DNA of 64,000 nt. Origin: Candidatus Aenigmarchaeota archaeon LH_S7 (lineage in GTDB: Archaea; Aenigmatarchaeota; Aenigmatarchaeia; QMZS01). The notes beneath the pieces were generated by a model. That model saw only the letters and a program-made list of their open reading frames with translations, was not told where the DNA came from and ran no database searches. This document shows, in pieces, positions 5,821 to 49,348 of the stretch. Numbering within the stretch: the stretch's first letter is position 1; every line of letters starts with the position of its first letter. The stretch spans positions 15,757 to 79,756 of the forward strand of contig JAGXOL010000001.1 in assembly GCA_023659895.1 (NCBI GenBank), written 5' to 3'. Position numbers and translations under genes: made by a program.

Positions 5821-5832
5821 AAAAAGAAAAAA

Positions 5833-6072
5833 TTAAATGCGAGATTCTTCTTCGTATTTATCCATCACATAATTCACTGAAATATGTCCATTATTCTTGC
5901 TTACTCCAGAGATCTTTATGTAATTGTCTCTACCAGCTTTTATAGGGTCTTCTAGTATATCATTTTCCATTTTGTTTATCATATTATCTGCTTCCTCTTT
6001 ATTATTGAAAAGTTTGTAGAAATTATTTTCAACCTCTGAACTCTCGAAAAGATTATCTAATGGGATACTCAC
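5833..6072 (-). CDS. hypothetical small protein
   Basis: 79 aa ORF, coding-like composition, no recognisable motif. Confidence 0.3.
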   Translation of the reverse strand: MSIPLDNLFESSEVENNFYKLFNNKEEADNMINKMENDILEDPIKAGRDNYIKISGVSKNNGHISVNYVMDKYEEESRI

Positions 6073-8042: not shown

Positions 8043-8154
8043 GCTGGGGTGGCAGAGTCAGGTTAATGCGGTGGACTCGAGATCCACTGGACCTAGTCCG
8101 CGCAGGTAGGTTTTTCTTGAAGAAAATCCCTGTAATCAAATCCTGCCCCCAGCG
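8043..8154 (+). tRNA. tRNA-Ser(CGA), class II, with a 28-nt intron in the T-loop (8108-8135, after T54)
   Basis: Acceptor GCTGGGG/CCCCAGC, 3-bp D-stem, anticodon arm GTGGA-CTCGAGA-TCCAC, variable hairpin GGAC-CTA-GTCC, T-stem GCAGG/CCTGC with loop split T|...|TCAAAT; exons total 84 nt. Confidence 0.7.
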
Positions 8155-10235: not shown

Positions 10236-10901
10236 TTAAGCCAAAAAGGAGTATATTTTTATTATCCTTTCTTTACTGCTCTTACTTATTTTGAAAAATT
10301 TAAAAAGAGGTTTTTTTATAATATCTCGATTTGGTGCCTCACCCAAAAAGAAAAAAATTGATACTGCTAAAATAACTATAAAAGGTAAACTGCCTATATA
10401 ATAGAGAGCAGGAAAAGAAATATTAAACAAAAATATTGACCACAAAAAAGAAGAATTTAGAGAAATTTTCCACGAGTATTTTATATAATTATAAACAGAA
10501 AAAAGAAGATAACCTAGAAATCCAGCATCAATCGCTGAAAAACCTAAAATAGGTGGAAGATTTGGTAAAGTATAAACAATTAGCAAAGAATTGAGAATTG
10601 GTAGTATTGTAACAAATGTTAAGGTAACAACATAGAGCCTTTTTCTATTATTCTCAAACTTGAAAATCAAGAAGATAAATAAGAAGTAATAGATCAAATT
10701 TCCTGCAAAATGAAAAATCTCAGTATGTACAAAATTTGAGAAGTAAATGCTTATTAAAGTTGGATTTGATGGCTGCAAAATAAAACATTCTTGGGGGAAA
10801 AGAAAAAGAAAATTAAGAAAAAGCGGAATGAAAGTGAAGAAAATTAAATAGTCAATTTTTTGTCTTGGTTTTGTAGAACTATAATTCTTAAGCATTATCA
10901 A
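10236..10901 (-). CDS. polytopic membrane protein, possible CPBP/Abi-like intramembrane protease; last gene of defence operon
   Basis: About 6 predicted TM segments; VHTEIFHFAGN (HxxxN-like); start overlaps PLD-SNF2 stop as ATGA. Confidence 0.45.
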   Translation of the reverse strand: MIMLKNYSSTKPRQKIDYLIFFTFIPLFLNFLFLFPQECFILQPSNPTLISIYFSNFVHTEIFHFAGNLIYYFLFIFLIFKFENNRKRLYVVTLTFVTILPILNSLLIVYTLPNLPPILGFSAIDAGFLGYLLFSVYNYIKYSWKISLNSSFLWSIFLFNISFPALYYIGSLPFIVILAVSIFFFLGEAPNRDIIKKPLFKFFKISKSSKERIIKIYSFLA

Positions 10902-13900
10902 GATATAAAATCAATTGTAACTAATTGCAATTTTGATTTATCAAAAGGTTCAATAATAGGTTTCTTAAATATTCCCTTTTCCATTAAAAAGTTATTCAGT
11001 TCTTCAACCCTTTTCTTCCAATTACCCTCCTTTTTATATTGTTTCCAAATTCTCCTTAGTATCTGCAATCTCTTTTTTGTTAGAGGGATTTTTTGTAATT
11101 TATCTAGTGTAATATCCCATACTCTCTGTATATTATTATCTGAAGGAAATTCTTCTAAATAATCATTAATTTCTTTTTCAATTGAATTAGCCATTTTTTT
11201 TACAAAAGTGGAACTTTTTGATTCGCTATGTTCTTTAAATTTTGTATCACTTTTTTGGCTAGAATATACTTCATTGTAATCTTCTTCTATTTTATTCAAG
11301 ATAGTTCTATTAACCTCATATATCTTCTCAAAGAAATTGGGAATAACCCTCACCTCTTTTTGTTTACAAGCTATGAAATCAATTATCTTTGTTTTACTGG
11401 TTATTATTGAATCTGTATTTATATCATATAAATACCAAAAATGGAAATCTTTACCATATTTGTAATAGAAAAATATGCCCGAAATTTTGTTTTTCTTTAA
11501 TCCACTATAAACACCATAAGGTATCTTTTCCAATTCCTCTAGAGCTTTATTCTTCATGAAATCCTTTAATGGCTGGTAAAATTTCTCACCACCACCAAAA
11601 GCATCTTGTTCTACTTCTGCGAATATTTTGGGATCTTTTCCTTTAATCTTTCTAATAATCCCAAAAACCTTGGGATGAATTTCTTCTCCCAAGATAGTTT
11701 GATCTAACCCTACCGATTTATCAATATCAATAATTTTATTCTGCAGAATTTCAACCAATTTTAGCAACTCTTCTAACTCATCTTCTGGAAAAAAATTGTA
11801 GACAAATATTTTTTTGTAGGGTGAACCAATCCTGTCTATTCTTCCTGCTCTTTGAATCATCCTTGTTGGATTCCAATGCAAATCATAATTAATGAGATAT
11901 TTAGCTGTTTGGAGATTTTGTCCTTGTGACAAAACATCAGTACTCATTAAAATATCAATCTCTTTTTTGAAGAATTTTTCTATAATCTTTTCTCTTTGTT
12001 GAGGATTTTTGTTCGTCAAACCTGAACTCGAAACTGCTTCAATTTTCAGTTTTGAGAATTTTTTATCCTTTATTATTTCATTATAAATATAATTTAAAGT
12101 ATCTGCATAATAAGTAAAAAGAACTATCTGCCCATCTTTTGACAAATTTAATAGTTTATCTTTAAGAACATTTAATTTAGAGTCATCTTCTGGTTTGATG
12201 GTATTTACTTTTTCAAGAATTTTGCTTAATAATTTAATGTCTTTGTCTATATCTCTAAATAAATCTTCTATTTTATAAAGGTCTTTTTCAAAAACGTCAA
12301 GTTTTGTTCCTTCCAAAGATTCGAATTTATCTAAATACTCTTCTATATCCTCCTCACTTATTGATCCAAAATTCTTCAATAACTTACTAAAATCTTTTTT
12401 CCCTAGGATTTTACCTGCTTTTAGGCTCTTCTTTAATTTTTCCAAAAAGTCTATGTGTCTCTTAATGCTTATCCGAAAAGATTCTACACTACTCTCTAAT
12501 CTTTTAAATAAAATTGTCCTGAAAATACCCCCAATCTGAATCATCCTGTTTAAAACAAACATTTCTTCTTCTGTCTTTACCCCTCCTTCTTTATATTCAA
12601 GTAGATGATAATAAGCCATTTTTAGATTTGAAATTATATCAGAAATCTCTTTATACATGCCTTTGTAAGCATTATCTAATTGATAGTTTATGTTTTCAAG
12701 AACTCTTTCCGGAAAAATTATCTTTTTCTGCTCTCCGTTAATCTCTATATAAGCATCAGGATAATTTTTAATAATATAGTCTCTTGTTCTTCTTATTGAG
12801 ATTTCATTTAGTAAGTCATTTAGTAAAGAAGGGTTGTCCTTTGCCTGTTTAAAGAACTTGAATAAATCGGGAATATTTTCTTTAATAAATGAAGATCTAT
12901 CCATCAAGATAAGAAGCATAATCTGCCAGTATAAATCCCAGAGGGTATTGTTTATTGGGGTAGCAGTTAAGAAAAGCATATAAGGTTTTTTACCCTTTTT
13001 AGCAATATTGTCATTAACCAAAGCGAAAAAATTCTCCCACCTGTTTGACAATGGATTTCTGAAATTATGGCTTTCATCAACAACTATTAATTCTACATCA
13101 TCAAATCTTCCGCCAAGAGTTTTCTTTGCTTTTTCTAAGAAATTTTCTGAGGCTAAATTTTCCTGAGACAAAATATTCTCTTTAACATCTATCTTTTTCA
13201 TCTCCTTAGCCCACATCCCCATTAACTGAGCAGGGCAGATTATCAGAATGTTTTTTCTTTCGTAGTATCCTATTCTTTCAAGAATTTTTTTAGCAATCCA
13301 AGTTTTACCTAACCCCACAGAATCAGCAACAATACAACCACCATATTTCCTCAATCTCTTCCATATTCTTTCAATAGCAGCATCCTGAAATTGAGCCAAA
13401 TTTACTTTAGTCTCTGGAAGTCCTTTTGGTTTTTCATTTTTTCCCTCTTCTACAACATCATCTTTTTGAAATTCATACAATGTCTTGATATAGATATCGT
13501 AAGGTAAATATTCCTTGCTTCCAAATCTGGAATTTTCCAAAATTTCTATAAGCTCATCTTTAAAGTCTCTTGATTCTGCCCAGAATTTTTCAAACCATTC
13601 TTTTCTTGTGAAGATTGCCTGGGATTTCTGTTTCCAGGTGTTTAATTCTCCATACCTTGTTAGTCCTGCAGCAGTAAAGTTAGATGAACCAATAACTATC
13701 CTATCATCAAAAATATAGGCTTTTCCATGCAGGAACTTTTCAAATAATCTAATTTCAACATTCTTTCTTTTTAGAAATTCAATAAACAACTTTATTGTTT
13801 TATCCTGCTCTTTTGTTAAATCAAAGCCTTCAATCTCTTTTCTTATTTCCTTTAAAAGAACGTCTCCAAGAGTTGTTTCATTCTGAATTTCCGGGGTTTT

Positions 13901-14095
13901 TCCAAGTAAAAGCCTGAATCTCTCAACACCATTTAAATTATCTTTGATCATGGCAAAAGCCTGAATATTGAAGAAAGCGGTTGCTATGTCAAAATTTGTT
14001 TTTGGATTCTCTCTTAAAACATTATTCAGGAAACTAATCAACTTGTTTCCTTCGCTGTTGTCTATTATTTCTTTTGGTATTGGCATTTTAATCAC
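10898..14095 (-). CDS. PLD-nuclease domain fused to SNF2-family helicase (DISARM DrmC+DrmD-like fusion)
   Basis: N-terminal HxK(x4)D motif HGKAYIFDDRIVIGSSNFT; helicase motifs GLGKT (I), VVDESHNFRN (II), LFLTATPINN (III), C-terminal QGQNLQ / QRAGRIDRIG (VI). Confidence 0.8.
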   Translation of the reverse strand: MIKMPIPKEIIDNSEGNKLISFLNNVLRENPKTNFDIATAFFNIQAFAMIKDNLNGVERFRLLLGKTPEIQNETTLGDVLLKEIRKEIEGFDLTKEQDKTIKLFIEFLKRKNVEIRLFEKFLHGKAYIFDDRIVIGSSNFTAAGLTRYGELNTWKQKSQAIFTRKEWFEKFWAESRDFKDELIEILENSRFGSKEYLPYDIYIKTLYEFQKDDVVEEGKNEKPKGLPETKVNLAQFQDAAIERIWKRLRKYGGCIVADSVGLGKTWIAKKILERIGYYERKNILIICPAQLMGMWAKEMKKIDVKENILSQENLASENFLEKAKKTLGGRFDDVELIVVDESHNFRNPLSNRWENFFALVNDNIAKKGKKPYMLFLTATPINNTLWDLYWQIMLLILMDRSSFIKENIPDLFKFFKQAKDNPSLLNDLLNEISIRRTRDYIIKNYPDAYIEINGEQKKIIFPERVLENINYQLDNAYKGMYKEISDIISNLKMAYYHLLEYKEGGVKTEEEMFVLNRMIQIGGIFRTILFKRLESSVESFRISIKRHIDFLEKLKKSLKAGKILGKKDFSKLLKNFGSISEEDIEEYLDKFESLEGTKLDVFEKDLYKIEDLFRDIDKDIKLLSKILEKVNTIKPEDDSKLNVLKDKLLNLSKDGQIVLFTYYADTLNYIYNEIIKDKKFSKLKIEAVSSSGLTNKNPQQREKIIEKFFKKEIDILMSTDVLSQGQNLQTAKYLINYDLHWNPTRMIQRAGRIDRIGSPYKKIFVYNFFPEDELEELLKLVEILQNKIIDIDKSVGLDQTILGEEIHPKVFGIIRKIKGKDPKIFAEVEQDAFGGGEKFYQPLKDFMKNKALEELEKIPYGVYSGLKKNKISGIFFYYKYGKDFHFWYLYDINTDSIITSKTKIIDFIACKQKEVRVIPNFFEKIYEVNRTILNKIEEDYNEVYSSQKSDTKFKEHSESKSSTFVKKMANSIEKEINDYLEEFPSDNNIQRVWDITLDKLQKIPLTKKRLQILRRIWKQYKKEGNWKKRVEELNNFLMEKGIFKKPIIEPFDKSKLQLVTIDFIS

Positions 14096-15923
14096 TTTTT
14101 ATGCTATTAAAGTAGCTTTTTAAATTTTCTTCTAAAATCTTATAAATGAAATTGAACATGGGCAAATCGTCATAAATGAAATCTAATATTCCAGTACTCA
14201 TAGAGATTAACTTGTACTTTTTTCCATTAGTTTTGACCTCTTTTTTAAAGTTTTCATGTGAAATTTCAGGCACTTCTTCGTTTTCCCCTTCTTCATAAAT
14301 TTCAACTTCTAAACCATCTTTACTTCCGTCACTTAGATAAAAAAACTGAATTTTTGGTGAGTCTTGGAATGACTTATACTCTTCTTTAACATCAAACTTT
14401 ATCATAACTTTTGATATTCCTTTAAATAAAAGTAATTTTTCTTTAATCTCTGGGAAATTATGGGACATCAGCTCAGAGTAAACTTTTGGTAAGCTATCAA
14501 AAAATATCCTTAGGTTATTTTTGACTGCATCTGGAGAAAATGTATTCCATATCCATCCGCTACCATCTTTTAATCTCGAATAGTCTTTCGGCGAATAAAC
14601 TCTATTTATATCTTTAATTTCTCTTGATTTCAAAAATAGAAACATTTCTTCAAATATCTTTAGTGGGAATCTACCATTTCCGATAGGTATTCTTGGGATG
14701 GAATCATTCTGAGTTATTCTTTCTTTTACCTTTTCTTCTACTTGTTTTCTCTCATTATCCATAATCTGGGAGATTAACATGTCTGGATCAAAGTATGGTT
14801 TCCTATACAGGCAATCTGAGTAATTCTTAATTCCATTTCTCTGATTCTTGATTAAGAATTTAATAGCTTCATCCATCCATATAGGTAAATATTTATAAAA
14901 TGCATATTCTATTTCATTAATATTAAATGCATCCTTTTTATCTAATCCCATCTGTTGATGAAATCTATCTATAAAACCAAAAATAAATTCTTTAGCTAAA
15001 AATTCGCTTACATCATGTTTCAATAATCTGTTTTTTAATAATCTAAGCATTTGAGCTTCAACAATTTCTAGTGCATATCCTTTGGGATTAGATTTTATAG
15101 GATTCTCCGCAAAATGTGCTGTAAAGCCAAGTCCCTCTTTCTCTAACTCTCTGTGCAATCCCTCGTTGACCTCCTTAATCTGAACATCATTTTTATTGGT
15201 AGATATGGGATAAAGGGCATAGTGTATCATATTATCTTCAAAACGATAATACGCTAAGCCGACTTTCCATGAGTTTGGATAAAACCTCTTTTTAATAATC
15301 AGGAATTCATTTTCTAGTAGACTATTAAACGAATCTAAGAAGAAATGAATTTTGATAAAGTCATCTTTAACTATTCTCAAAGCAGGATTTGATTTCTCAG
15401 ATAAATTTTTATAAGAGTCCTTTAGTTTATCGTATTCTTTTATCTTCTTTTTATAAGATTCAGTAATCTTTTTCCAGTCTTCAATATAACTACTATTATT
15501 ATCAATGATGTTCTCTTTTTTGAACGTTATAGTTATTGTTTTTTGATCCTCGGTGTGTAACTCACTTATTAATGAATTATTTACATGAATCCAGAAAGAT
15601 TTATTGTGATTGACATCAACACCAATCAGTAAAACCGGATTACAAGTACTGGCCTCACTATAAGAAATAAGCGAGATAGGACATTGTAATTTGTGCTTAT
15701 CCCCATTTTCTGGTAATGTCCTTATTTGAACTTCTAATTTACCAATGGGCGACCTGTTTCCGTTAACTAATTCTACATACCCGTCAATGTTCGGATACTT
15801 ATCACGTTCTTTTATGTCAGCCTTTACTTTCTCATGATTAAGGAGTTTCTTGAAAGTGTCAACTGCTTGAGTTTCTGCTTTATCAGTATTGCTATATGGT
15901 GCAGCTCTAATTTCTTCATTCAT
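14088..15923 (-). CDS. hypothetical defence-operon protein, possible N-terminal PD-(D/E)xK-like (DUF4365-like) domain
   Basis: 611 aa; N-term YPNIDGYVELVNG...IGKLEVQIRT pattern; no ATPase motifs; translationally coupled to both neighbours. Confidence 0.4.
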   Translation of the reverse strand: MNEEIRAAPYSNTDKAETQAVDTFKKLLNHEKVKADIKERDKYPNIDGYVELVNGNRSPIGKLEVQIRTLPENGDKHKLQCPISLISYSEASTCNPVLLIGVDVNHNKSFWIHVNNSLISELHTEDQKTITITFKKENIIDNNSSYIEDWKKITESYKKKIKEYDKLKDSYKNLSEKSNPALRIVKDDFIKIHFFLDSFNSLLENEFLIIKKRFYPNSWKVGLAYYRFEDNMIHYALYPISTNKNDVQIKEVNEGLHRELEKEGLGFTAHFAENPIKSNPKGYALEIVEAQMLRLLKNRLLKHDVSEFLAKEFIFGFIDRFHQQMGLDKKDAFNINEIEYAFYKYLPIWMDEAIKFLIKNQRNGIKNYSDCLYRKPYFDPDMLISQIMDNERKQVEEKVKERITQNDSIPRIPIGNGRFPLKIFEEMFLFLKSREIKDINRVYSPKDYSRLKDGSGWIWNTFSPDAVKNNLRIFFDSLPKVYSELMSHNFPEIKEKLLLFKGISKVMIKFDVKEEYKSFQDSPKIQFFYLSDGSKDGLEVEIYEEGENEEVPEISHENFKKEVKTNGKKYKLISMSTGILDFIYDDLPMFNFIYKILEENLKSYFNSIKSD

Positions 15924-15932
15924 TTTAATTCC

Positions 15933-17270
15933 TCAGTACCCATGAGCTTTTATTACCTCTTCTGTCTTTTTGAATAAGTCTTGATTGTATTCTTCTGTAA
16001 GAGCTTTAAGTTCATTCATCAATTTATTGACATCTTCTGTTTTGATATAACCGTTTTGAAAAAAATCTTCTAATTTGTCATTATCAATAACAGAAATTTT
16101 GTATTCAAAATAAAGTTTTACCAAATGTATTAGTGATTTTAGAGGAAATAATACTACTTTTAGGCTAAAGTCTTTTTCTAATGTTTTTATCATCTGATTA
16201 TCTTTTTTATTATTCAAGTCAAAATCATAAGCGAAGATTATAAAATGGGGAACTTTAAATCTAGAAGTAACATAATCCTTAGTATAGGCTTTAAGATACT
16301 TCCTTATTTGATTTTCGTGTTTTTGTAAAGGTAATTTTCCGCCTTTGTAACTCTTAATTTCTAATGGGATTAACAAACTTGGAGCACTTTTTATTACAAA
16401 TATAACTCCGTCTGGCTGATTTTTTTGGCCTAAAAGCTTTGCATTAAAAAGGGTAATTCTCAATAAGTCAGCTACATATTCTTGGAACTTTTCACCTTGA
16501 ACTTTAGAATTCTCTTTTCCTTTTTGTAACGCATAAGTTTCAATGTTCTGTATTATATCCTTCCAGAATTTTTCAATATCTACTAATTTTTTAGTATCTC
16601 TATATTTTAATTCTAATTCTAATTCTTTTCTTTTTTCTGATATTGACATTTCAATAAGTTTGAATTCTTTTTCAAAGAATTTTTTATCAAAAATCTTTTC
16701 TAAAGTTAGCAAACCGATATCTCCCCTAGAAGATAATGTGGACAGGGTAACTTCTGGACTAAAACCAATAAAGACATGAAAATCTGGAGTGTAGTTTTTA
16801 GACCAGCCTTTTAGAATATAAAGATCATTAAACCCTATTTTTTCTGTTGAAACCAAAACTGAAATCTTGAAAACTTTCCCTTGTAATAGAAATTTGTTAT
16901 TTTCTTCAGCTATGATGCTGTAGCCTTTTAGAAATCTAAGAAATTTTTCTTTAAGATACTGAATTGTTTTTTCTGTATCTAAACCAAATTCTCTAAATGC
17001 AATGTTAGAAATTCTTTTTCCACATTTTTTACAGAATGTAAATTCCATTCCTTCGGAAACACATGCAACACCACCACATTCACATTGAATCTCATATATT
17101 TTAGTAGCTCTAAGCTCCTCTAAATCATTCTTATCAAAGAACTTTATGATGCTATCTCTTTTTACAGATAATTTTCTAGATAATTCTAAGTCTGTAAAAT
17201 GCTTATCTGTTCCTTTGGATAACATTATTGAGGTAAAGATTACATTATCCTTATTCAAGCTCTTTGACAT
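15933..17270 (-). CDS. zinc-ribbon plus restriction-endonuclease-like (PD-ExK) protein
   Basis: CECGG...CKKCG ribbon near N-terminus; C-terminal QPDGVIFVIK...LIPLEIKSYK matches PD-x(n)-ExK nuclease signature. Confidence 0.5.
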   Translation of the reverse strand: MSKSLNKDNVIFTSIMLSKGTDKHFTDLELSRKLSVKRDSIIKFFDKNDLEELRATKIYEIQCECGGVACVSEGMEFTFCKKCGKRISNIAFREFGLDTEKTIQYLKEKFLRFLKGYSIIAEENNKFLLQGKVFKISVLVSTEKIGFNDLYILKGWSKNYTPDFHVFIGFSPEVTLSTLSSRGDIGLLTLEKIFDKKFFEKEFKLIEMSISEKRKELELELKYRDTKKLVDIEKFWKDIIQNIETYALQKGKENSKVQGEKFQEYVADLLRITLFNAKLLGQKNQPDGVIFVIKSAPSLLIPLEIKSYKGGKLPLQKHENQIRKYLKAYTKDYVTSRFKVPHFIIFAYDFDLNNKKDNQMIKTLEKDFSLKVVLFPLKSLIHLVKLYFEYKISVIDNDKLEDFFQNGYIKTEDVNKLMNELKALTEEYNQDLFKKTEEVIKAHGY

Positions 17271-18153
17271 GCTTCAACAAAACCTCCTTCAATTCTTTAA
17301 AAATATCCTTTATCTGTGGACGAAATGTTATTTTACCATTATCATAGAAGCTGATTGGTTTTTTGCTCATGTCCACTTTTTGAGAAATTAACTCTTTAGC
17401 AGATTCTTTAATCTTAATTCCCCTATCTTCAAAAAGCTTCAATGTCTTTTCTACATCAGAGCCTTTTATATGAATTTCATCTGCTCCAGAAAGATTTAAT
17501 CCAGTTGCCTTTACTGATTTGAATCTAATGTTTTTATCTAATTTTCTATATTCCTCTTCATTTATTTTAATCAAGTTTATAGAATCTTCTTTGAGATTAA
17601 AGTGATTTTGAAGTAAATCTTTAACAATTTCAAATTTGTTATAACTACTCGTTCTACATTCTATAATGGATATATCTGAATGATAGATGAAATATAAAGT
17701 GAATGGTCTTCTAAATCTAACATTTATTGGTTCTAATGTATTAGGTTCCTCTACGTTGCTATATTCGTAAGTATGTGAATGAGCATTCACATTAATTATA
17801 CTTTGATTATTCTGGGAAATTATTTTCTGAAATTCAAATATTAAGTCATTATCTTTATCTACAATTTTTTTGCTTTCAATTCCTTTAAACTCTAATTTCT
17901 TGTTTGAATAGGAAAAAAATACAGATCTCTTTTTAAGAAGACTATAATAATTTACGAGATATTCCAGAAGCTGTTTATCTTTTCTATACAATTCATTTAC
18001 AAAATCTTCTTTTTTTCTTGATTTTATGTCTGGAAGTTCCTTTCTTAATCTGCTTATCTTAACAATCTTCAATGCTCTTTCAATTAATTGATTTTTATCT
18101 TTCATCGTCTCAAACTCCCCGCCTTCTCCAATCTCTGCTTCACCAACTCGCAA
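17251..18153 (-). CDS. hypothetical defence-operon protein
   Basis: 300 aa, overlaps flanking genes, no recognised motif. Confidence 0.35.
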   Translation of the reverse strand: MRVGEAEIGEGGEFETMKDKNQLIERALKIVKISRLRKELPDIKSRKKEDFVNELYRKDKQLLEYLVNYYSLLKKRSVFFSYSNKKLEFKGIESKKIVDKDNDLIFEFQKIISQNNQSIINVNAHSHTYEYSNVEEPNTLEPINVRFRRPFTLYFIYHSDISIIECRTSSYNKFEIVKDLLQNHFNLKEDSINLIKINEEEYRKLDKNIRFKSVKATGLNLSGADEIHIKGSDVEKTLKLFEDRGIKIKESAKELISQKVDMSKKPISFYDNGKITFRPQIKDIFKELKEVLLKHVKELE

Positions 18154-21100
18154 ACACTCCAGTAAACCTCTTTCCTCTCCTCCTCCGTCAAGCCGAGTTC
18201 ATCAAAAATAATTTTGTCAAGCTCTGCCCTATCAGGAAGAGGTTTTGGCTCTTGTTCTCGGATTGGTTTTGATGGGTCAAGGCCGAATTCTTCGAAGATT
18301 GAGTGAACTTTTCTCTTAGAAATTTTACCGAAAATTTTTTTTAAGAAAGAAGAATTTATTTTGTTAGGATTTGGTATAAAAAATTTTCTTACTTCATATA
18401 TCATTGGTTTATTTAATCCTTCCCCGAGAGAAAACCTTCCCAAAGTTTCATAAAATAGAAATGAAATTGCCGAATTAAGCATACAGCAAATATTTTCTTT
18501 ATTGTTTTCTTTGAAATATAATCCGTACAAATTATAGTCAAGAAAACAAGTAATGTTGTTAAATGGTACAATAAATCTTTCACCAATTTGACTTGAAAAG
18601 ATAAAATCAGGGGCTTTTACTTCACCTGTAGAATACCAATTGTTTCTTCCTTTAACACTGGGAATCTCAGTATATTTAATCCCGTCTTTCTTTTGTTTCT
18701 CAGCCCACTCTATATAACTTAAAATATTTGTTCCTTTAAGTTGTTTTTTTGATTTATTACAATATAAAACATAGAATCTAAGGTTGCTTTCATTTAATAT
18801 AATAGTTTCATATTCTTTAGGTGTTTTTAAAATTTGTTTAAGATATTCCTTTTCAATACCAAGTTTCTTAATCTTATCTTTATCTAAATAAAAGAATTTA
18901 TTGATTCCGGATTTTATTCCTGGAGAAACTTTAGCAATCTTTCCTAATTCAACTAACTTCCCTTTTCCCTTCTCCAAAATTGTATAGAATATATCTGGAG
19001 CCCTCAGATATTTCCCGCCCCATTTATTGCCTTCATAACTTCCAGCTTTGAATCGGTCTTTTTTATCATAGTTTTCTGGATATTCCCAACCATCTTCAAG
19101 CAAATCTCCTTGTAAAATAGGAAAAACTCTATAATCTTGTGTTGTTTTAACATTCTTCACTAACTCAGTTATGGTTTCTCCTCTTGTTTTGACTTTAGCA
19201 TTTTCAATTTCAATCAAATTCTTTGTATTTAAAACCTCTTCAAATGGTTTTTTGAACATTACAAATTTTGCTGTGTGATTCAACATAGGCCAATCCTTTT
19301 TACCATCAACATTCAAACCTTCTATTCTTTTATCTTTAATTATAGGAGCACCAAACAAAGCAATAATGGTATTAACATCAGCATGAGCAAAACTTCTTTT
19401 TGGATTGTCATAAATTGCAGTTACAGGAGCATACCTTAACAGAAATTCCTGCAGATTCCTACCATAACCTACATCAAGCCATGAATTAGAAGTAATAAAA
19501 CAAAATGTTCCTTTTTCATTCAACAAACCCAAACCATGAAAATAGAAGTAAGTGTAATAATCACTTTTTTTATTTATCTTATTAATAATTGGAAAAATAT
19601 TTTTTACAGACTTAATCAGCTTTTCTTTATATTCTTTTCTATCTTTTAAAGTAATTTCTGCTTTTAATTTATTCGGTGGAGATATCTTTTCCTGTCTCAC
19701 ATAAGGAGGATTCCCTATAACGATATCAAAACCATTTTTGTCCCCGAAGATTTCAGCAAAGTCAATATCCCAGACAAATGGTTTCTTTTCCGGATTTTTC
19801 AGAAGTTCTTTAATTTTCTTTAGTTTTTCAATTTCTTCTTCAAATTGCTGAATTTCTTTTTCTGTTGCATTAATTTTTTCTTTTTCTTTCAGATAAACCT
19901 CAGCCTCAACATTTATCTCTGAATTAAACAATCCTACTTGTTTTCCTTGTTTCTTCATATTATTTTCCAGAGATTCGGTATCTTTTTTTAATCCCTCTAT
20001 TCGTTCATCAATTATTTCCTCAAATAATCTGGTTTCTTCGCTTCTAACTGCTTCAGGAGTCTTGAATTTTACTGTTGGAGAATTTTCAAAATATTTTCTC
20101 TTTTCCTGTTTTAGATTATCTAATTGCTCCCTTAAATGTGGTTTTATATCCTCGTTTGTTCTGAGATTAAAACTAAGCCCCCCAATTTCCTGAATTAATG
20201 AATCTCCAACCCTTAGATTAAGATTTAAATTAGGTAACAGAGGGTGTTTTCTCAATTCCTCTTTTTTAAATTCTCCTTCAACAATCAATTGCAACCACAA
20301 TCTTAATTCTGCTGCATGACTTGCCCAAGGCATTACATCAACACCATAGAGAGAATACTGAAGAATTCTCTTTTTCAACTCAAAATCCGTCAAATCATTT
20401 TTTATATTTGCATACACCATTCTGTAAAGTTCTGCGAGAACATTCAACAATCCAACTAAAAAAGCTCCTGAACCGCAGGCAGGGTCTACAGCAGATAAAT
20501 TATCCAGAACTCTTTCTATCTCATACCAAATCTTTTTATCACCAAATTCTTTCTTAAGTTTTTCCTTCTCCTCAGGAGAATCAAAAACAAGATGATAAAT
20601 TTTATCCTTTGGAATGTCAGGCAAATGTTTTGACAAATATTCAACTATTACTCTTCTGCACATGAAATCAACTTCAACTCTCGGAGTGTAGAAAATACCT
20701 AAATCATTCCTGTCATAAATCTCCTCAGCTACATTAGCCAAAGACTCATAGACATAACCAATCATCTGAGGATCAACAGCAACCTCTTGGTCTAAAGGTA
20801 TATCTTCTTTTATTGTAAAATTATATTTCTCAAAGAAATCAAAAATATTCTGAAACAATTTATCAGTTATTTCTACCTTCAATTTATCTAAATCATTTTC
20901 TTTAAATAAGCCACCATTCAGATATGGGGAATTAGAAATTACTCTATTTACTTCTTCCGGGTAACCAGTTATTTCATTTGAACGGTTATTAAAGGCTTTG
21001 AGGAAAATCTGTTTAAGCCATATTTCATAAAATTCATTGGAGTTATATTTTCCCAAATTTTTATACGACTTCCACAACCACCCAACAAATTTTGGATATT

Positions 21101-21788
21101 CAAGCCATTTCTTTTTTGAGATAAAATAGATAAACATTAATCTGTTCAGGAACTGTAAGGTAAATTCATGTGATTCTTTTCTTGGGATATTCTGTTTATT
21201 CACTTCATCCCTCAATGTAAAAAATATTTTCTTATAATCTTCAAAAAATGCTTCTGTTACTCTTTCAACGCTAAATGCTTTCTTCCATTTTCTCCAAACA
21301 TCACGCCAGTTAGTTTCTCCTTCATAACGAATATTCGAAAGAGTTTCAATAATAGTATAACCTTCTTTTTTGTTTATAATTTCGTCTCTATCTATAATCA
21401 ATTTTGTTAGTTTTAGTTTATGTTCGCCTTTTTCAGTTTTTTCACGATTCGGTAACATAAATACAATTTCAGAATAATCAGTTGCAAAAATCAATAAAAA
21501 GTGTAAATATTGTTTATCAAAAGCTGTTGTAACAGATCTTATAAAAGAAGGGTTCAATGTTTTTGTTTCAAGCAAAAAAACAGGTAGGTTCTCACCAAAA
21601 CTTGTAATTGAATACAAGTTCTTAATTCTTTGAACATCATCTTTTTTGAAATTAAAGGATTCTTTTTTTCTTTTCGTAGTTTTATAAGAATAGTTCAAAT
21701 GACTAAACAAAGTAAAAATATCATCTGCAGATTTAATTTTGCCAATATGCTGGTGTATTTTTCTCCTCAATCCTATATTATCTTCCAT
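18102..21788 (-). CDS. gamma-class N6-adenine DNA methyltransferase, large (BREX PglX / DISARM DrmMI / Type IIG-like)
   Basis: 1228 aa; GIFYTPRVEVDFM (motif X), VDPACGSGAFLVGLLN (motif I), IVIGNPPYVRQEK (motif IV NPPY); long N- and C-terminal extensions. Confidence 0.8.
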   Translation of the reverse strand: MEDNIGLRRKIHQHIGKIKSADDIFTLFSHLNYSYKTTKRKKESFNFKKDDVQRIKNLYSITSFGENLPVFLLETKTLNPSFIRSVTTAFDKQYLHFLLIFATDYSEIVFMLPNREKTEKGEHKLKLTKLIIDRDEIINKKEGYTIIETLSNIRYEGETNWRDVWRKWKKAFSVERVTEAFFEDYKKIFFTLRDEVNKQNIPRKESHEFTLQFLNRLMFIYFISKKKWLEYPKFVGWLWKSYKNLGKYNSNEFYEIWLKQIFLKAFNNRSNEITGYPEEVNRVISNSPYLNGGLFKENDLDKLKVEITDKLFQNIFDFFEKYNFTIKEDIPLDQEVAVDPQMIGYVYESLANVAEEIYDRNDLGIFYTPRVEVDFMCRRVIVEYLSKHLPDIPKDKIYHLVFDSPEEKEKLKKEFGDKKIWYEIERVLDNLSAVDPACGSGAFLVGLLNVLAELYRMVYANIKNDLTDFELKKRILQYSLYGVDVMPWASHAAELRLWLQLIVEGEFKKEELRKHPLLPNLNLNLRVGDSLIQEIGGLSFNLRTNEDIKPHLREQLDNLKQEKRKYFENSPTVKFKTPEAVRSEETRLFEEIIDERIEGLKKDTESLENNMKKQGKQVGLFNSEINVEAEVYLKEKEKINATEKEIQQFEEEIEKLKKIKELLKNPEKKPFVWDIDFAEIFGDKNGFDIVIGNPPYVRQEKISPPNKLKAEITLKDRKEYKEKLIKSVKNIFPIINKINKKSDYYTYFYFHGLGLLNEKGTFCFITSNSWLDVGYGRNLQEFLLRYAPVTAIYDNPKRSFAHADVNTIIALFGAPIIKDKRIEGLNVDGKKDWPMLNHTAKFVMFKKPFEEVLNTKNLIEIENAKVKTRGETITELVKNVKTTQDYRVFPILQGDLLEDGWEYPENYDKKDRFKAGSYEGNKWGGKYLRAPDIFYTILEKGKGKLVELGKIAKVSPGIKSGINKFFYLDKDKIKKLGIEKEYLKQILKTPKEYETIILNESNLRFYVLYCNKSKKQLKGTNILSYIEWAEKQKKDGIKYTEIPSVKGRNNWYSTGEVKAPDFIFSSQIGERFIVPFNNITCFLDYNLYGLYFKENNKENICCMLNSAISFLFYETLGRFSLGEGLNKPMIYEVRKFFIPNPNKINSSFLKKIFGKISKRKVHSIFEEFGLDPSKPIREQEPKPLPDRAELDKIIFDELGLTEEERKEVYWSVCELVKQRLEKAGSLRR

Positions 21789-43991: not shown

Positions 43992-44786
43992 ATGAACGAA
44001 AAAATTAGAGAATTTTTTAGACCAACTAAAAGAAAATTGTTGTTTACTTTTCTATTAGCAGTAGCAATGATAGTTGAATTTTTTTTATTGACCTTTATAA
44101 ATTCTTCTATTTGTCCGAATATAGAATTGGGGGATACTACAATAACCTCGTACTCTTTAATTCTAGCTATTTTACACTACACATTTTATATACCAGAAAT
44201 TTTAATAACTTATCCTTCAATTGTTACTGCAGTGGGTTATATTCTTTCTATATCTTTAGTGGTGATTTATAGTTATCTTCTTATTTGTTTATTTTCTAAT
44301 GTTTATAAATATTTCAGAGGTAAAGTCTCAAAAATATTTATATTGGCAATTCTCCTAATGTTATTCTTGCCTATTCCTATAACCGAACATCATCGTCCTT
44401 GTCGTATAGAACCTATGAGAATGGATAAAATGCTACAAAATTTCAATATTCCACAAGCTTATGAATGTGAAAGTAACAAAATATGCTTTGAGTTAAGAGC
44501 TTATACAAGGAATAGCATGGATATGCCAGTAAATGATAGTGCTATATCTGTGTTCATAGATAACAAACCTAAAGCTTTAGGTTATTGGGATGGAGGAACA
44601 GTAGGAATAGCTTGTAAAAGTGGTGTACAATTGTCACCAAAAGAAAGTTGTTTTGGATATGTAAATGTAAGTTCTTGTAAACCAGGAGAAAATCACAGTT
44701 TAAAAGTTGCACATAAGTGGAGAGGAGGAGGACCAGGAATTACAGTAGAATGTGGATTACCCAAACAAAAAAACCATGAAAATTAA
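43992..44786 (+). CDS. membrane/secreted hypothetical protein
   Basis: N-terminal TM helices then Cys-containing extracellular domain. Confidence 0.35.
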   Translation: MNEKIREFFRPTKRKLLFTFLLAVAMIVEFFLLTFINSSICPNIELGDTTITSYSLILAILHYTFYIPEILITYPSIVTAVGYILSISLVVIYSYLLICLFSNVYKYFRGKVSKIFILAILLMLFLPIPITEHHRPCRIEPMRMDKMLQNFNIPQAYECESNKICFELRAYTRNSMDMPVNDSAISVFIDNKPKALGYWDGGTVGIACKSGVQLSPKESCFGYVNVSSCKPGENHSLKVAHKWRGGGPGITVECGLPKQKNHEN

Positions 44787-45219
44787 TAGCTCTGCTTTTA
44801 AAAACTATCAACTTATCCCTAAAAAACATACCTGTGATGGAAAAAACATTAATCCCCCTTTCCAGATTGGTGGTGTTCCCGAAAAGGCAAAAAGCTTGGT
44901 ATTTATTGTTGATGATCCTGATGCCCCCACCGGCACTTTTGATCATTGGATAGTGTGGAACATTGACCCTTCAATCTCCTCAATCCAAGAAAACAGCTTG
45001 CCAGAAGGAGGTGTGGAGGGTTTGAATGATTTTGGGAAAAGTTCCTATGGTGGCCCTTGTCCACCACCTTCCGAAACCCATCATTATCATTTCAAGGTTT
45101 ATGCTTTGGATACTGAATTAAATTTGGCTTCTTCTTCAAACAGAGAAACTGTTGCACAAGCAATGGAAGGCCATATTTTAGATTGGGCAGAATTAGTTAG
45201 ACTTTATCGCCGAGAGTGA
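44752..45219 (+). CDS. PEBP/YbhB-YbcL family protein
   Basis: DDPDAPTGTFDHW and HHYHFKVYALD motifs. Confidence 0.7.
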   Translation: MDYPNKKTMKINSSAFKNYQLIPKKHTCDGKNINPPFQIGGVPEKAKSLVFIVDDPDAPTGTFDHWIVWNIDPSISSIQENSLPEGGVEGLNDFGKSSYGGPCPPPSETHHYHFKVYALDTELNLASSSNRETVAQAMEGHILDWAELVRLYRRE

Positions 45220-45243
45220 AAAATTATTTAATGGATAAACATT

Positions 45244-46044
45244 ATGCCAGAACTTCCTGATGTAGAATTTTTTAAAGAATACTTTAAGGATAACAGTCTT
45301 CATAAGAAGATTATTAATATTGAATGTGAAGATAAGACTTTGATTAAAAACGTAGATTTTCGAGATTTCAAAAAAAGTTTAATAAGAAAAAGTTTTAGGG
45401 ATGCTTGGCGAATAGGAAAATTTTTGATTGCTGAGATAAAAGGAATATCCGAAAACTTGATAATTCATTTTGGAATGACTGGGAGCTTGCATTATGTAAA
45501 ACAAGGAGAAGAAAGAAAAAGGAGGGATAGGTTTACCCGACTTTGTTTCAGATTTGCTAATGGTTATGAGCTAAGGTGGATAAACATAAGAAGATTAGGC
45601 AAGATTTACTTAACAAAACCCCAAAATATAAAATTGATTGAAGAGATGGGACCGGAGCCATTACAACTCTCCCAACAGGAATTTTTGAGACTATTGACAA
45701 ATCATGAACTAAAAAATATCAAAGCATTTTTGATGGATCAAAGGAATATCGCTGGCATTGGAAATGTGTATTCAGACGAGATATTATTCCAAGCTAGAAT
45801 CAATCCTCATCGAAAAATTGAGGATTTGACCCAAAGACAGAAAAAAATCTTGTTTCAGAAGATATACCAGGTTTTAACTGAAGCCACAAAAATATTAACT
45901 TTTTACCGAGCATTTCCTAAATCTTGGTTAGAGCCCCATCGCCATACCAATGATTTGATTTGCCCCCGAAACAAAAACCACAAATTGAAGAGAGAAACCA
46001 TTGCTGGGAGGTCGGCCATTTTTTGTCCCCTCTGTCAAACTTAA
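45244..46044 (+). CDS. Fpg/Nei family DNA glycosylase/AP lyase
   Basis: N-terminal MPELPDVE (catalytic Pro2/Glu3), H2TH region, C-terminal zinc finger CPRNKNH...CPLCQ. Confidence 0.8.
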   Translation: MPELPDVEFFKEYFKDNSLHKKIINIECEDKTLIKNVDFRDFKKSLIRKSFRDAWRIGKFLIAEIKGISENLIIHFGMTGSLHYVKQGEERKRRDRFTRLCFRFANGYELRWINIRRLGKIYLTKPQNIKLIEEMGPEPLQLSQQEFLRLLTNHELKNIKAFLMDQRNIAGIGNVYSDEILFQARINPHRKIEDLTQRQKKILFQKIYQVLTEATKILTFYRAFPKSWLEPHRHTNDLICPRNKNHKLKRETIAGRSAIFCPLCQT

Positions 46045-46067
46045 TTTTTCAGAAATTCTTTGGAAAT

Positions 46068-46703
46068 ATGAACAAAAGAAAAACAAGGAATACTTTGGAG
46101 AGGATATATAGAGAGCTTAAAAGAAAATATGGAAAACCTAGGGGACAATGGGTGATGTGGTGTAAAAGACCAAAAACTGAGCGAGAAAGAGAGGAAGTAA
46201 TAATTGGAGCTGTTTTAACCCAGAGAACAAACTGGGTTAATGTAAAATCAGCCTTAAATAACTTGAAGAATGCGAAGGTTTGTTCTCTTAAAGGTATTTA
46301 TAAATTAAATATTGAAGAGTTATCGGTTTTGATTAAACCTTCAGGTTTCTACCAAGCCAAGGCCAATTATCTTTTCTATTTGATTGATTTCATTCTCAAT
46401 AATTATAGTGGACTGAAAAAGCTTAAAGGAATAAATCTTAAAAAACTCAGAGAACAATTGTTAAGTTTAAAAGGTATTGGACCAGAAACAGCTGATAGTA
46501 TTCTACTTTATGCTTTGGATAAATCTGTTTTTGTTATTGATGAATATACCCGCCGCTTGGTTAAAAAAAGAAATTTGAGTGAAAATTTATCTTACACATT
46601 TTTGCAAAAATTGTTTGAGGAAAATTTAAAAAAAGATTTCCGATTATATCAAGATTTTCATGCTTTGATTGTAATGGATGGCAAAAACAAAACATCCAAA
46701 TAG
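46068..46703 (+). CDS. HhH-GPD superfamily DNA glycosylase (endonuclease III-like); listed ORF over-extended at 5'
   Basis: LLSLKGIGPETADSILLYAL...VIDEYTRRL helix-hairpin-helix GPD motif; start at MNKRKTRNTLERIY. Confidence 0.7.
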   Translation: MNKRKTRNTLERIYRELKRKYGKPRGQWVMWCKRPKTEREREEVIIGAVLTQRTNWVNVKSALNNLKNAKVCSLKGIYKLNIEELSVLIKPSGFYQAKANYLFYLIDFILNNYSGLKKLKGINLKKLREQLLSLKGIGPETADSILLYALDKSVFVIDEYTRRLVKKRNLSENLSYTFLQKLFEENLKKDFRLYQDFHALIVMDGKNKTSK

Positions 46704-46781: not shown

Positions 46782-48899
46782 TCAAAATTCCCCCAACTTT
46801 TTCTGCTTTTTATTTTCTAAAATGTTTTTTGAAGTTGCCCATTTTAACCTCACAATTTCATTGTAACTTTCTTTATCTAAATTCCTCAAAAATTCTGTGG
46901 TTCTTTCATCACTAGGATAACCTGAATTATGCAATAAAATACCAGAAAAGCCACCAACAAAATTCTCTATATTTTTTCCGTTTGGCTTTACTTCTAAATC
47001 ATAAACAAATTCTTTTCTTCTTAAATTTTTTATTGATTTCAGAGTATACCAACAAATATCAGAATTTAATAATTTATTTATTTTTTTGGTATCTTTACCA
47101 TCAAATATTTTTATTATCTTTCTTATAGTGGATTTTCTTATAGAACCAGATTTTTGATTCTCGATTCTACTTGTTATTCCATGATCTATACAAGTTAACT
47201 CAGCCAATTTTCTTTGGGAGATTTTATATTTTAATCTCAACTTTTTTATTGTTTTTCCTATTATCGAAGGAATATTATCTGGAGAAAGAGAATTCGTATT
47301 TTGAGAAAGCTCTCTTATTACATGCCTACCTCTACTTTGCTTAAAAGAAGAAGTAGGTTTATTTAAAAATAAATATAACCAAGATAAATCATAAAATATA
47401 TATTTGCTCCTGGTTTCTACTTCCCAATTGTTTTCATCCATATATCCATCACCATCCAGGTATCCTCTAATGAAATTTTTAATTTGTTCTTTAGAGCAGG
47501 AAAAAATAAAGTTTGGTATTCTTTTTTTGTATGCTGAATTTCCTACCCATTTATTAAAAAGTTTACATAGTATCCCTGAATTAATTTCAATACCATCTTT
47601 ATCAAATCTATAAGATGTGTTCAAATTCTTGCATGTATATTCAATTTCATTTAATACTTTATGGTCAGTGTTAGAAATACATACATTATAACCCTTTGTA
47701 TATCCCTCAGCAAGATACAACCCTAAGAGCCAAGTAAATTCTTTGTTTAGTCCTAAGATCGCTTTTATACTTGACTTTCTACCCCTACTATAAAGTATTG
47801 CATCATTTATAAATCTTTCCTTAAGGTAATCTCTCTTGAGACTAGTCACTATGTGAAGAGGTATATACGATTTCCTCTCCCATTCGTAGGATCTTACTCT
47901 ACTGTAACCTTGGGAAATACTTAGTTGCTGAATTTTTTTAAATCCCTCTCCCCTAAAAATTTTAGAGATGATCTTTCCGCTTAAATAAACAGGAGATTTC
48001 TTAGATGATGGAACAATTTTGGCAAGGTTTAAATTTTTAATACCTTTCCTTATATCTATATATTTGGCTGCTGCAATATAATCTCCAACCTTAAGATCCG
48101 AAACTTTAATGGGCATCAAATTTAAATTAGAGTTTAATTTAAAAATAGGATGGTTAAGAGTTAATCTAACTTTTTTCCCATAATTTAATTTAATTTCATA
48201 AATTGGTTGCGATGTATGTTTAATAAAGTTTGTAATTTTATATTTTTTTATTTTAAGTGAGTTTGGATCAATACTGTATGTATATAAATTCCCTTTTTCT
48301 TTATTTTCCACTACTTTTCCAATCTGCTCTAATTTTCTATCCCCTTTTCTATTTTCAATTAATATTCTCTCTTGGTATGGTAAAGATCCAAAAAATCCAT
48401 GTTTATTATGTAGCTTCTCAATCTCCCTGTCTCTTGTGACCTTTGCCAGAATGGAAGCTCCTCCAACAACAACGTACTTGTTATCTGCCTCATTCTCAGC
48501 AACAATATTTCCATCCTTGTTTTTCAATTTTTCCAAGACTTTATTCTTGAATTTCTCAGTATTGGCTTCAATAGAATCAAGATAAATTTTAGGTTTTCTC
48601 ATCCAAAAGGAATTGATTATTTGAGCGATCTTAGTAATCTCAATTTCGTTAAGATTTCTTCTTTCCATTTCTCTATTGAGTTGCTTTGATGAAATTTTTA
48701 ATACAATGTAATCATCAGCAATTTTTTTTATCTTATCTATCATTTCCTTTCTTTTCTCTGGTAAGACTTTCTTTGAGTCTTTAACACCAAGTTCTTTCAA
48801 TTTTTTTTCTTTTGATTTTTTAATCAATAAACCTGCAATAACTAGAGGACCTACAACTGCACCGCGACCAGCTTCATCAATTCCCAAAATGTAAGACAT
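46782..48899 (-). CDS. rnhB: ribonuclease HII interrupted by an about 487-aa LAGLIDADG intein
   Basis: N-extein GIDEAGRGAVVGPLVIAG...GGASILAK...HGFFG and C-extein SGYPSDERTTEF flank an insert ending ...ILLHN|S with LLGLYLAEGY and IRGYLDGDGY motifs. Confidence 0.8.
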   Translation of the reverse strand: MSYILGIDEAGRGAVVGPLVIAGLLIKKSKEKKLKELGVKDSKKVLPEKRKEMIDKIKKIADDYIVLKISSKQLNREMERRNLNEIEITKIAQIINSFWMRKPKIYLDSIEANTEKFKNKVLEKLKNKDGNIVAENEADNKYVVVGGASILAKVTRDREIEKLHNKHGFFGSLPYQERILIENRKGDRKLEQIGKVVENKEKGNLYTYSIDPNSLKIKKYKITNFIKHTSQPIYEIKLNYGKKVRLTLNHPIFKLNSNLNLMPIKVSDLKVGDYIAAAKYIDIRKGIKNLNLAKIVPSSKKSPVYLSGKIISKIFRGEGFKKIQQLSISQGYSRVRSYEWERKSYIPLHIVTSLKRDYLKERFINDAILYSRGRKSSIKAILGLNKEFTWLLGLYLAEGYTKGYNVCISNTDHKVLNEIEYTCKNLNTSYRFDKDGIEINSGILCKLFNKWVGNSAYKKRIPNFIFSCSKEQIKNFIRGYLDGDGYMDENNWEVETRSKYIFYDLSWLYLFLNKPTSSFKQSRGRHVIRELSQNTNSLSPDNIPSIIGKTIKKLRLKYKISQRKLAELTCIDHGITSRIENQKSGSIRKSTIRKIIKIFDGKDTKKINKLLNSDICWYTLKSIKNLRRKEFVYDLEVKPNGKNIENFVGGFSGILLHNSGYPSDERTTEFLRNLDKESYNEIVRLKWATSKNILENKKQKKLGEF
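46926..48386 (-). other. intein (Hint domain + LAGLIDADG homing endonuclease + HTH) within rnhB
   Basis: Begins Ser (SLPYQERIL), block B TLNHPIF, ends HN followed by +1 Ser; two LAGLIDADG blocks. Confidence 0.7.
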
Positions 48900-49118
48900 A
48901 AAATAATAAAGAAATTAAGCAAAAAGATTTTACAATACTTAAAGTATTTTTGAATATTATTTTAAGACCTTTAAGATACCTACTAGATTGTGGTCTTGCA
49001 AAAATTATAAATCTAGTGGTTATATTTATAGGTTGATTATATCTACAAATTTAAATTATTACTCCATAATTCAATAAAGGTCTATACATATTATTAATAT
49101 TTTAATCGGTTTTTTTAT

Positions 49119-49348
49119 GGCGGGAGCTGGTCCATAGCGAACTTGCTTTTTAAGTATTAGTAAGTCTGTAAGGATGGAGCAGTTAGGAGTGCTCGTCGAA
49201 CCCTTTTCTCCCTATCGCTCTAAAAGCGTTCACGGAAAAAAAGAGAAATAGGTGCGGAAGGCTCATAAGGACCTTTTTAGAAAGAGGTTCTATCCAAAAT
49301 GCATTTGGGAGACCCGAAGGTCGGTGGTTCAAATCCACCTCCCGCTAT
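49119..49348 (+). tRNA. tRNA gene with about 150 nt of intervening sequence; identity unresolved (tentative anticodon arm GAACC-CTTTT...GGTTC would be Lys-UUU)
   Basis: 3' end GGTGG-TTCAAAT-CCACC-TCCCGCT-A pairs with GGCGGGA at 49119; internal D-arm-like GAGC-AGTTAGGAGT-GCTC at 49177-49194; several extra hairpins. Confidence 0.45.

Follow-up and report, generated by a model that had tools for sequence, protein, structure and literature searches.

Inteins in which a Hint splicing domain harbours a nested LAGLIDADG endonuclease with two motifs and is accompanied by further modules for DNA binding are described from enzymes such as family B DNA polymerase or ribonucleotide reductase (RNR), which host PI-PkoII/PI-TkoII (the Thermococcus kodakarensis Pol-2 intein, 2cw7) and PI-PfuI (1dq3). 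In PI-TkoII and in the TliVMA intein, an accessory domain lies between the endonuclease and the C-terminal Hint segment, resembles helix-turn-helix (HTH) DNA-binding proteins and modulates DNA recognition (PMC8966425). Homing with co-conversion of the adjoining host-protein sequence (extein) has been studied in haloarchaeal inteins (PMC10643990). For RNase HII as a host, the only mention found in the literature is a single sentence in Gallot-Lavallee et al. (2023), which refers in passing to a ‘cluster 18’ of RNase HII inteins in Anaeramoeba flamelloides and prokaryotes (PMC10710043). Here we describe an intein that splits rnhB, the RNase HII gene, in a 64,000-nucleotide (nt) stretch of DNA from an uncultured Candidatus Aenigmarchaeota (DPANN) archaeon. 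This whole stretch is referred to as the window, and positions are given in its numbering.

The window intein shares the composite build of PI-PkoII and PI-PfuI. PI-PkoII is its best match in both sequence (E 3.3e-16) and fold (6e-18), although identity to PI-PkoII and PI-PfuI is only ~18–25 %, and the window intein differs from both in residing in RNase HII, in its Ser1/Ser+1 pair and in being known from sequence and a predicted model. Its HTH module, which may tune the specificity of the homing site, occupies the same position as the accessory domain of the TliVMA and PhoVMA inteins (7qss, 7qst; PMC8966425), but differs from theirs in scoring, just under the Pfam cut-off, as a Cro/C1 (XRE-type) HTH_3 domain. 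Because an accessory domain at this position is found in TliVMA and PI-TkoII, the architecture was already known, and the HTH segment was rejected as a novel feature. The inteins of PMC10710043 have the same host family as the window intein and are likened to it by host only; their insertion site may be G|SGYPSD or the second RNase HII site described below, and that paper contains no analysis of the Aenigmarchaeota alleles or their recent spread.

Closer relatives were found among Woesearchaeota and other DPANN archaea (P0002–P0004, P0153–P0156, P0158 and L012–L014), whose inteins have the insertion site, architecture and all key residues of the window intein at 35–46 % intein identity, and which form one intein allele family with it. 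These copies are old and diverged, whereas the Aenigmarchaeota copies of the LH series are nearly identical to one another. The latter display the footprint also predicted for haloarchaeal homing (PMC10643990), an identical intein with short converted borders in diverged alleles, here known from metagenomes alone.

We conclude that the element is very likely a cis-splicing intein of class 1 that carries a LAGLIDADG homing endonuclease nested within it as well as an HTH accessory domain for DNA binding, inserted in rnhB between Gly171 and the Ser of G|SGYPSD (the bar marks the insertion point) and recently spread by homing with co-conversion. It belongs to an ordinary, well-known class of intein in a host gene that is rarely used.

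Domain structure of the intein and its host protein

A Pfam scan of the 705-amino-acid (aa) open reading frame (ORF) recovered RNase_HII (PF01351) at 142.5 bits, with the match broken into two stretches, together with Intein_splicing (86.6 bits, cut-off 35.8), LAGLIDADG_3 (37.1 bits against 22.5) and HTH_3 (PF01381; 22.5 bits, slightly under the cut-off of 23). Overall, this support from Pfam goes well beyond what chance would give. The PF01381 domain is also precomputed on the homologs P0002 and P0004. Among the aligned homologous RNase HII inteins (n=10), the residues corresponding to H250, D634, H657, N658 and S659 are conserved throughout, and S172 is invariant in one homolog alignment and nearly invariant in another. 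The acidic residues of both LAGLIDADG motifs, E398 and D484, are conserved in all full-length RNase HII intein homologs, and the lysine and proline of block D are conserved too. By sequence, the closest solved relatives besides PI-PkoII are the TFIIB mini-inteins and the TliVMA intein 7qss.

A structural model of the intein was generated with AlphaFold (AF2) from a 5-sequence alignment and was used for the Hint and HTH segments only. The mean predicted local distance difference test score (pLDDT) was 68.8, with values of ~75–91 for the Hint segments and 72–92 for the HTH helices, and a confident helical bundle was present at intein residues 372–440. Foldseek ranked 2cw7, 7qss and 1dq3 highest, as significant matches whose whole-model template modelling (TM) scores were just 0.32–0.38, and the Hint part matched mini-inteins with a TM score of 0.5–0.6 and a root-mean-square deviation of 2–3 Å.

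The original prediction, made from the DNA sequence of the window, had proposed a LAGLIDADG intein between the G and S of GSGYPSD, with an N-extein of 171 aa and a C-extein of 47 aa that together make an RNase HII of about 218 aa. The coordinates of the ORF and its parts were verified, and each of the motifs it had listed was located (the Ser start, TxxH, two LAGLIDADG blocks, an HTH segment, the HN end and Ser+1). The domain scans, the residues invariant across 10 homologs and the many intein-less 218-aa orthologs all agree with this proposal. The intein is single-copy in the window at both the DNA and protein level, so that several copies feeding gene conversion within the window were rejected as an explanation, and no intein domains were found in the 8 largest other ORFs of the window. 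The GC content of the intein is 27.7 %, compared with 32.2 % for the N-extein and 31.5 % for the whole window, a mild difference that is consistent with a separate history of the intein.

The spliced 218-aa product aligns without gaps across the junction KYGEFG|SGYPSDPRT to the RNase HII of Pyrococcus horikoshii and T. kodakarensis, and its matches to 1uax (E 1.7e-49), 1io2 and 2dfh run end to end. In the alignment to 1uax and 1io2, the four carboxylates that match the catalytic residues of archaeal RNase HII (D8, E9, D108 and D139) and the GRG motif all fall within the N-extein. The tyrosine of the GSGYPSD motif recognizes the RNA–DNA junction (PMC3025331), and the equivalent residue of the precursor, Y661, is the third residue of the C-extein. 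Because the carboxylates are all in the N-extein and the C-extein begins with SGY, the intein splits a substrate-recognition motif adjoining the active site and not a catalytic motif. The description of GSGYPSD as an active-site motif in the original prediction therefore stands in that a conserved RNase HII motif is split, but has to be corrected in that the motif contributes tyrosine-based substrate recognition. The ratio of nonsynonymous to synonymous substitution (dN/dS, Nei–Gojobori) in the distal N-extein is ~0.1, indicating that the host gene is functional and under selection.

On this anatomy, the 705-aa precursor would be translated as a whole and Ser172 would undergo an N–O acyl shift, after which Ser659 (+1) would attack in a transesterification and Asn658 would cyclize with the help of His657. 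The expected products are a free 487-aa intein and a ligated 218-aa RNase HII, and ligation would bring the junction-sensing tyrosine back beside the catalytic DEDD residues in the N-extein. As a homing endonuclease, the free intein would then cut intein-less rnhB at GGx|TCx GGx TAT, and repair templated by the occupied allele would copy the intein plus some flanking extein DNA.

Empty sites and distribution of the allele

A search with the spliced extein returned thousands of RNase HII proteins, and the best 120 were inspected. All of these were ~182–278 aa in length and carried PF01351 alone. Alignment of intein-less orthologs, together with the lack of the insert in these best 120 hits, excludes an in-frame domain present in all orthologs, which had been named beforehand as the finding that would overturn the intein. 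The intein-less 218-aa orthologs are 75–79 % identical to the spliced product, and two 5′-truncated gene calls at 83–85 % identity also span the empty site. Two of the empty alleles, L007 and L009, share the gene neighbourhood of the window (ParA, DUF5752, a 103-aa gene, rnhB and PCNA). The junction sequence of an empty allele such as L009 or P0041 is AAATATGGTTTTTTTGGT|TCTGGATATCCGAGTGATGAA, and the empty sites of the L009, L007 and P0041 type read TATGGNTTTTTTGGN|TCNGGNTATCCNAGTGATGA around the junction.

The combination of RNase HII and an intein was present in only five 90 % clusters of a 5.8-billion-cluster protein set, namely that of the window, P0002–P0004 and P0005. The window’s own cluster has 10 members including the window protein itself (P0023), and the exact protein is present in NCBI and Logan assemblies. 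None of the sources labels any of the five clusters as intein-containing. The suggestion that the allele may be uncatalogued therefore holds for the database entries, which lack intein annotation, but not for the protein, which was already deposited in NCBI and Logan, nor for RNase HII inteins as such, which were mentioned in 2023 (PMC10710043).

When the intein by itself was used as the query of an exhaustive HMMER search against 1.84 billion representatives, 2087 hits reached E ≤ 1e-3. Among the best 150 of these, eight had an RNase HII host, and all eight hosts were of the archaeal type and carried the intein at the G|SGY site. A pattern-based scan of 185,579 GTDB species representatives found the site occupied in Candidatus Aenigmarchaeota LH_S4 and LH_S6, with an intein 100 % identical to that of the window, and in three Woesearchaeota, with inteins 35–41 % identical. 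Lake Hillier as the environment behind the LH label was not supported, the study of that lake having detected Aenigmarchaeota through amplicon sequencing only. The G|SGYPSD allele of RNase HII is rare, comprising about 11 sequence clusters from DPANN archaea. One further protein, P0196 (427 aa), has a 207-aa mini-intein at G|SGYPSD of an archaeal RNase HII from which the endonuclease and HTH have been deleted, showing endonuclease loss in some lineages as the homing cycle predicts. A scan of IMG/VR, pattern-based and of limited sensitivity, gave no support for a viral vector, returning only distant relatives at 24–33 % identity, none of them in RNase HII.

A second site in RNase HII is represented by P0005. 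Its 506-aa intein is homologous to that of the window from end to end (29 % identity, E 2e-48) but is inserted at AAA|SVLAKVTRD, ~24 residues before the G|SGYPSD position. The host protein of P0005/P0032 is a bacterial-type RNase HII, collinear with Escherichia coli RNase HII (7uwe) across its own junction. The P0005 gene (L086 8001–10190) has DnaE, NusB, RNase III, L32p, S16 and TrmD as neighbours, a clearly bacterial context, and its host is probably a member of the Patescibacteria. As the two inteins are homologous at differing sites, related inteins occupy two RNase HII sites in two domains of life, and P0005 constitutes both a second RNase HII insertion site and a link between DPANN archaea and the candidate phyla radiation (CPR).

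Near-identical inteins in diverged host genes

Among the 10 members of the window’s 90 % cluster, protein identity was 97.7–100 % for the intein compared with 70.6–100 % for the exteins. At the DNA level, mismatches between the window and L001 numbered 101 of 513 nt in the N-extein, 3 of 1461 nt in the intein and 15 of 144 nt in the C-extein, and their density varies along the gene. Per 60 nt there were 15–19 mismatches over gene nt 1–300, 8 over nt 301–360, 1–2 from nt 361 to the N-junction and 0–1 in the intein, with a renewed rise ~26 nt past the C-junction. The same pattern holds between occupied lineages when the spliced genes are compared, in which the distal N-extein (nt 1–330) is 61–71 % identical and the junction-proximal 210 nt are 96–100 % identical. 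Empty alleles, in contrast, are 65–79 % identical in both the distal and the junction-proximal zones. Functional constraint on the extein borders was rejected as the reason for their conservation, given that empty alleles are just 69–79 % identical in that stretch.

Estimates of synonymous substitution (dS, Nei–Gojobori) were 0.003–0.007 for the intein and 1.9–2.9 for the distal N-extein, a roughly 400-fold contrast. In a feature-by-feature comparison, the core flanking genes (M42 peptidase, PCNA, the 103-aa gene and ParA) were 64–74 % identical to those of other lineages, whereas the tract of intein plus borders was 99.4–99.6 % identical in all other lineages. For LH_S4 and LH_S6, which are separate GTDB species representatives, the corresponding values relative to the window were 66–74 % for the flanking genes and 99.5 % for the intein tract. 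In a neighbour-joining tree of extein residues 39–110, which lie outside the converted tract, the occupied alleles formed two clades with 54–64 % identity between them. Ten or more empty alleles have their branches in between, and the empty allele P0041 is 92 % identical to the window.

A near-identical intein with short identical extein borders in diverged alleles fits homing with co-conversion. Most simply, a single intein allele would very recently have invaded two or more diverged Aenigmarchaeota lineages or passed from one to another, presumably as DNA moving from cell to cell, and would have carried with it a short stretch of donor extein. The dS contrast and the conversion-like extein tracts lend indirect support to the predicted site-specific cleavage of the intein-less allele.

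Several observations weigh against spread by homing. The LAGLIDADG core was modelled with low confidence (pLDDT 45–69), and both splicing and endonuclease activity are deduced from conserved residues alone. The extein tree is based on just 72 residues, and the upstream boundary of the tract (gene nt 330/331) is common to several lineages, so there may have been fewer independent events than alleles. All close copies come from one series of short-read metagenome-assembled genomes (MAGs), in which the pairing of N- and C-flanks within a contig could be chimeric because the 1.7-kb element that the genomes have in common acts as a repeat between them; each diverged extein allele should be reliably joined to the identical intein, as this linkage spans less than ~200 nt and lies within read length. 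Finally, the locus is mosaic beyond the intein. An adjacent cassette of a 264-aa gene, a PBP-family gene, an Fpg/Nei glycosylase and endonuclease III (264aa-PBP-Fpg-EndoIII) is 87–100 % identical between genomes whose core genes are 64–74 % identical, and general recombination, in place of repair initiated by the endonuclease, could therefore have moved the intein.

The alternative raised by this mosaicism is that the intein is real but owes its movement to ordinary homologous recombination, or to gene flow, at a locus prone to recombination and not to its own endonuclease, which may be inactive. We consider this improbable. It is consistent with the 88–95 % patches in the cassette of the near-clonal pair formed by the window and L004, and with L003, which has an L001-like rnhB from about nt 91 to its end yet a different gene neighbourhood. 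The distal C-extein is also 86–90 % identical between genomes with 64–74 % identical core genes. In LH_S4 and LH_S6, however, the sole tract of high identity in the available flanks is the intein with its immediate extein borders, and the insertion site lies at the centre of the near-identical tract, which is what co-conversion predicts. Retention of both LAGLIDADG acidic residues and of the block D lysine and proline likewise argues against movement by recombination only.

That the near-identity is an artefact, arising in metagenome assembly or binning or through contamination across samples, is a good deal less probable still. In its favour, the 10 close copies are without exception MAG or Logan contigs that derive from a single sample series, and a shared repeat of 1.7 kb can produce chimeric joins between strains. 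Against this, independent NCBI and Logan assemblies from different runs (SRR14170873 and SRR14170864) contain the same arrangement, and at least three N-extein and at least four C-extein alleles adjoin this one intein at distances of tens to ~180 nt, less than one read pair. Moreover, such an artefact cannot turn truly diverged inteins identical in every assembly. That the insert is a permanent in-frame domain or a dead, non-splicing intein, making the ORF a 705-aa fusion or a pseudogene, has a negligible probability: splicing of the window intein is a prediction from its residues, and the HTH_3 score is marginally under the Pfam cut-off, but all nucleophiles and assisting residues of splicing are intact and do not vary among homologs, purifying selection acts on the exteins (dN/dS ~0.1), the insert parts the junction-sensing tyrosine from the catalytic core and nearly all RNase HII orthologs lack it.

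Recent homing with co-conversion thus remains our preferred explanation. An extension of it, which we regard as unlikely, is that the intein drives DNA exchange between Aenigmarchaeota that have diverged to the species level. Breaks in rnhB would seed tracts that shuffle the 264aa-PBP-Fpg-EndoIII cassette and leave a mosaic C-extein, and the intein lineage with the HTH would, in addition, have switched between two RNase HII sites and crossed between domains, from G|SGYPSD in DPANN archaea to AAA|SVLAKVTRD in a CPR bacterium.

Features of the window and significance

The coordinates of the precursor ORF, its parts and the flanking tracts are collected in Table 1.

Table 1. Positions of rnhB and intein features in the window
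Feature	Position	Strand	Details
rnhB precursor ORF, RNase HII split by intein	46782–48899	−	705 aa + stop, ATG start
N-extein	48387–48899	−	aa 1–171; coordinates and alignment to 1uax/1io2
GIDEAGRG in N-extein	48861–48884	−	D8, E9 and GRG motif; alignment to 1uax/1io2
D108 in N-extein	within 48573–48584	−	alignment to 1uax/1io2
D139 in N-extein	within 48474–48491	−	alignment to 1uax/1io2
ASILAKVTRD in N-extein	48429–48458	−	
Intein	46926–48386	−	aa 172–658, 487 aa; Hint splicing domain, LAGLIDADG endonuclease and HTH accessory domain
Block A	48342–48386	−	Ser1 = aa 172 (SLPYQERILIE), N-terminal nucleophile
Block B, TLNH	48150–48161	−	aa 247–250 (T247, H250)
LAGLIDADG motif 1, LLGLYLAEGY	47700–47729	−	aa 391–400; acidic residue E398
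LAGLIDADG motif 2, IRGYLDGDGY	47442–47471	−	aa 477–486; acidic residue D484
Block D lysine/proline, YKKRIP	47502–47531	−	
Cro/C1-type HTH accessory domain	47103–47261	−	aa 547–599; HTH_3; endonuclease domain before, C-terminal Hint segment after
Blocks F and G	46926–47012	−	VYDLEV (D634)...GILLHN (H657, N658); with the following S659, VYDLEV...GILLHN|S = aa 632–659 and GILLHN|S = aa 653–659
C-extein	46782–46925	−	aa 659–705 + stop; starts at Ser+1 of SGYPSD; junction-sensing Tyr = aa 661
Upstream extein tract	48387–48569	−	gene nt 331–513, 183 nt; 96–100 % among intein-bearing lineages, 69–79 % to empty alleles; putative co-conversion tract
Downstream extein tract	46899–46925	−	27 nt; shares near-identity before divergence resumes

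The 264aa-PBP-Fpg-EndoIII cassette occupies window positions 43992–46703 (+), between rnhB and PCNA. It is present in only some relatives (L001, L004 and L006, compared with L003, L007, L009, L010 and L011) and represents a second recently exchanged segment beside the intein. In L001, an extra ~1.2 kb (4579–5858) separates rnhB from the endonuclease III gene and contains ORFs of 272 and 55 aa with no Pfam hit. On both sides of this segment lies a copy of the last ~50 nt or so of rnhB in direct orientation, in that window 46784–46833 corresponds to L001 4579–4628 and 5809–5858, and the segment may be an insertion in L001 or may reflect a deletion between repeats in the window lineage.

Upstream of rnhB, the intergenic region at 49113–49346 (+) forms a GC-rich island (0.41 compared with ~0.27 around it). 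Its 3′ end resembles the T-arm and acceptor strand of a tRNA (GGTGGTTCAAATCCACCTCCCGCTA), and its 5′ end (GGCGGGAG), ~230 nt apart, can pair with it. The island folds stably, at −81.6 kcal/mol (z = −3.6), and in L001 a 36-nt part of the island shows 97 % conservation. Neither ARAGORN nor Rfam made a call for this island, which may be a tRNA with one long or several introns or another tRNA-like RNA. The sole Rfam tRNA call in the window is at 8043–8154 (+), where 112 nt match a 71-position model; this suggests an intron-containing archaeal tRNA. The call overlaps the 5′ extension of the listed PGK ORF, in which the PGK Pfam domain begins only at residue 75. A cluster of large genes at 10898–21788 (−) resembles a defence or restriction-modification island and includes a PLD-nuclease/SNF2-helicase fusion (1065 aa), a DUF4365 protein (611 aa) and an Eco57I/MmeI-type methyltransferase (1228 aa).

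Inteins tend to occupy the most conserved substrate-binding sites of their hosts, and the RNase HII case fits this tendency. With the insertion at its junction-sensing tyrosine motif, RNase HII joins the replication and repair proteins that are targeted by inteins, and a pair of occupied and empty alleles is at hand for a new LAGLIDADG specificity. The rnhB locus also offers a natural snapshot of intein spread, with one allele (dS ~0.005) across lineages whose host genes are synonymously saturated, visible tract borders and empty alleles in between. This is direct evidence that uncultured DPANN archaea, which are probably episymbiotic and whose routes of gene transfer are poorly known, have exchanged DNA very recently.

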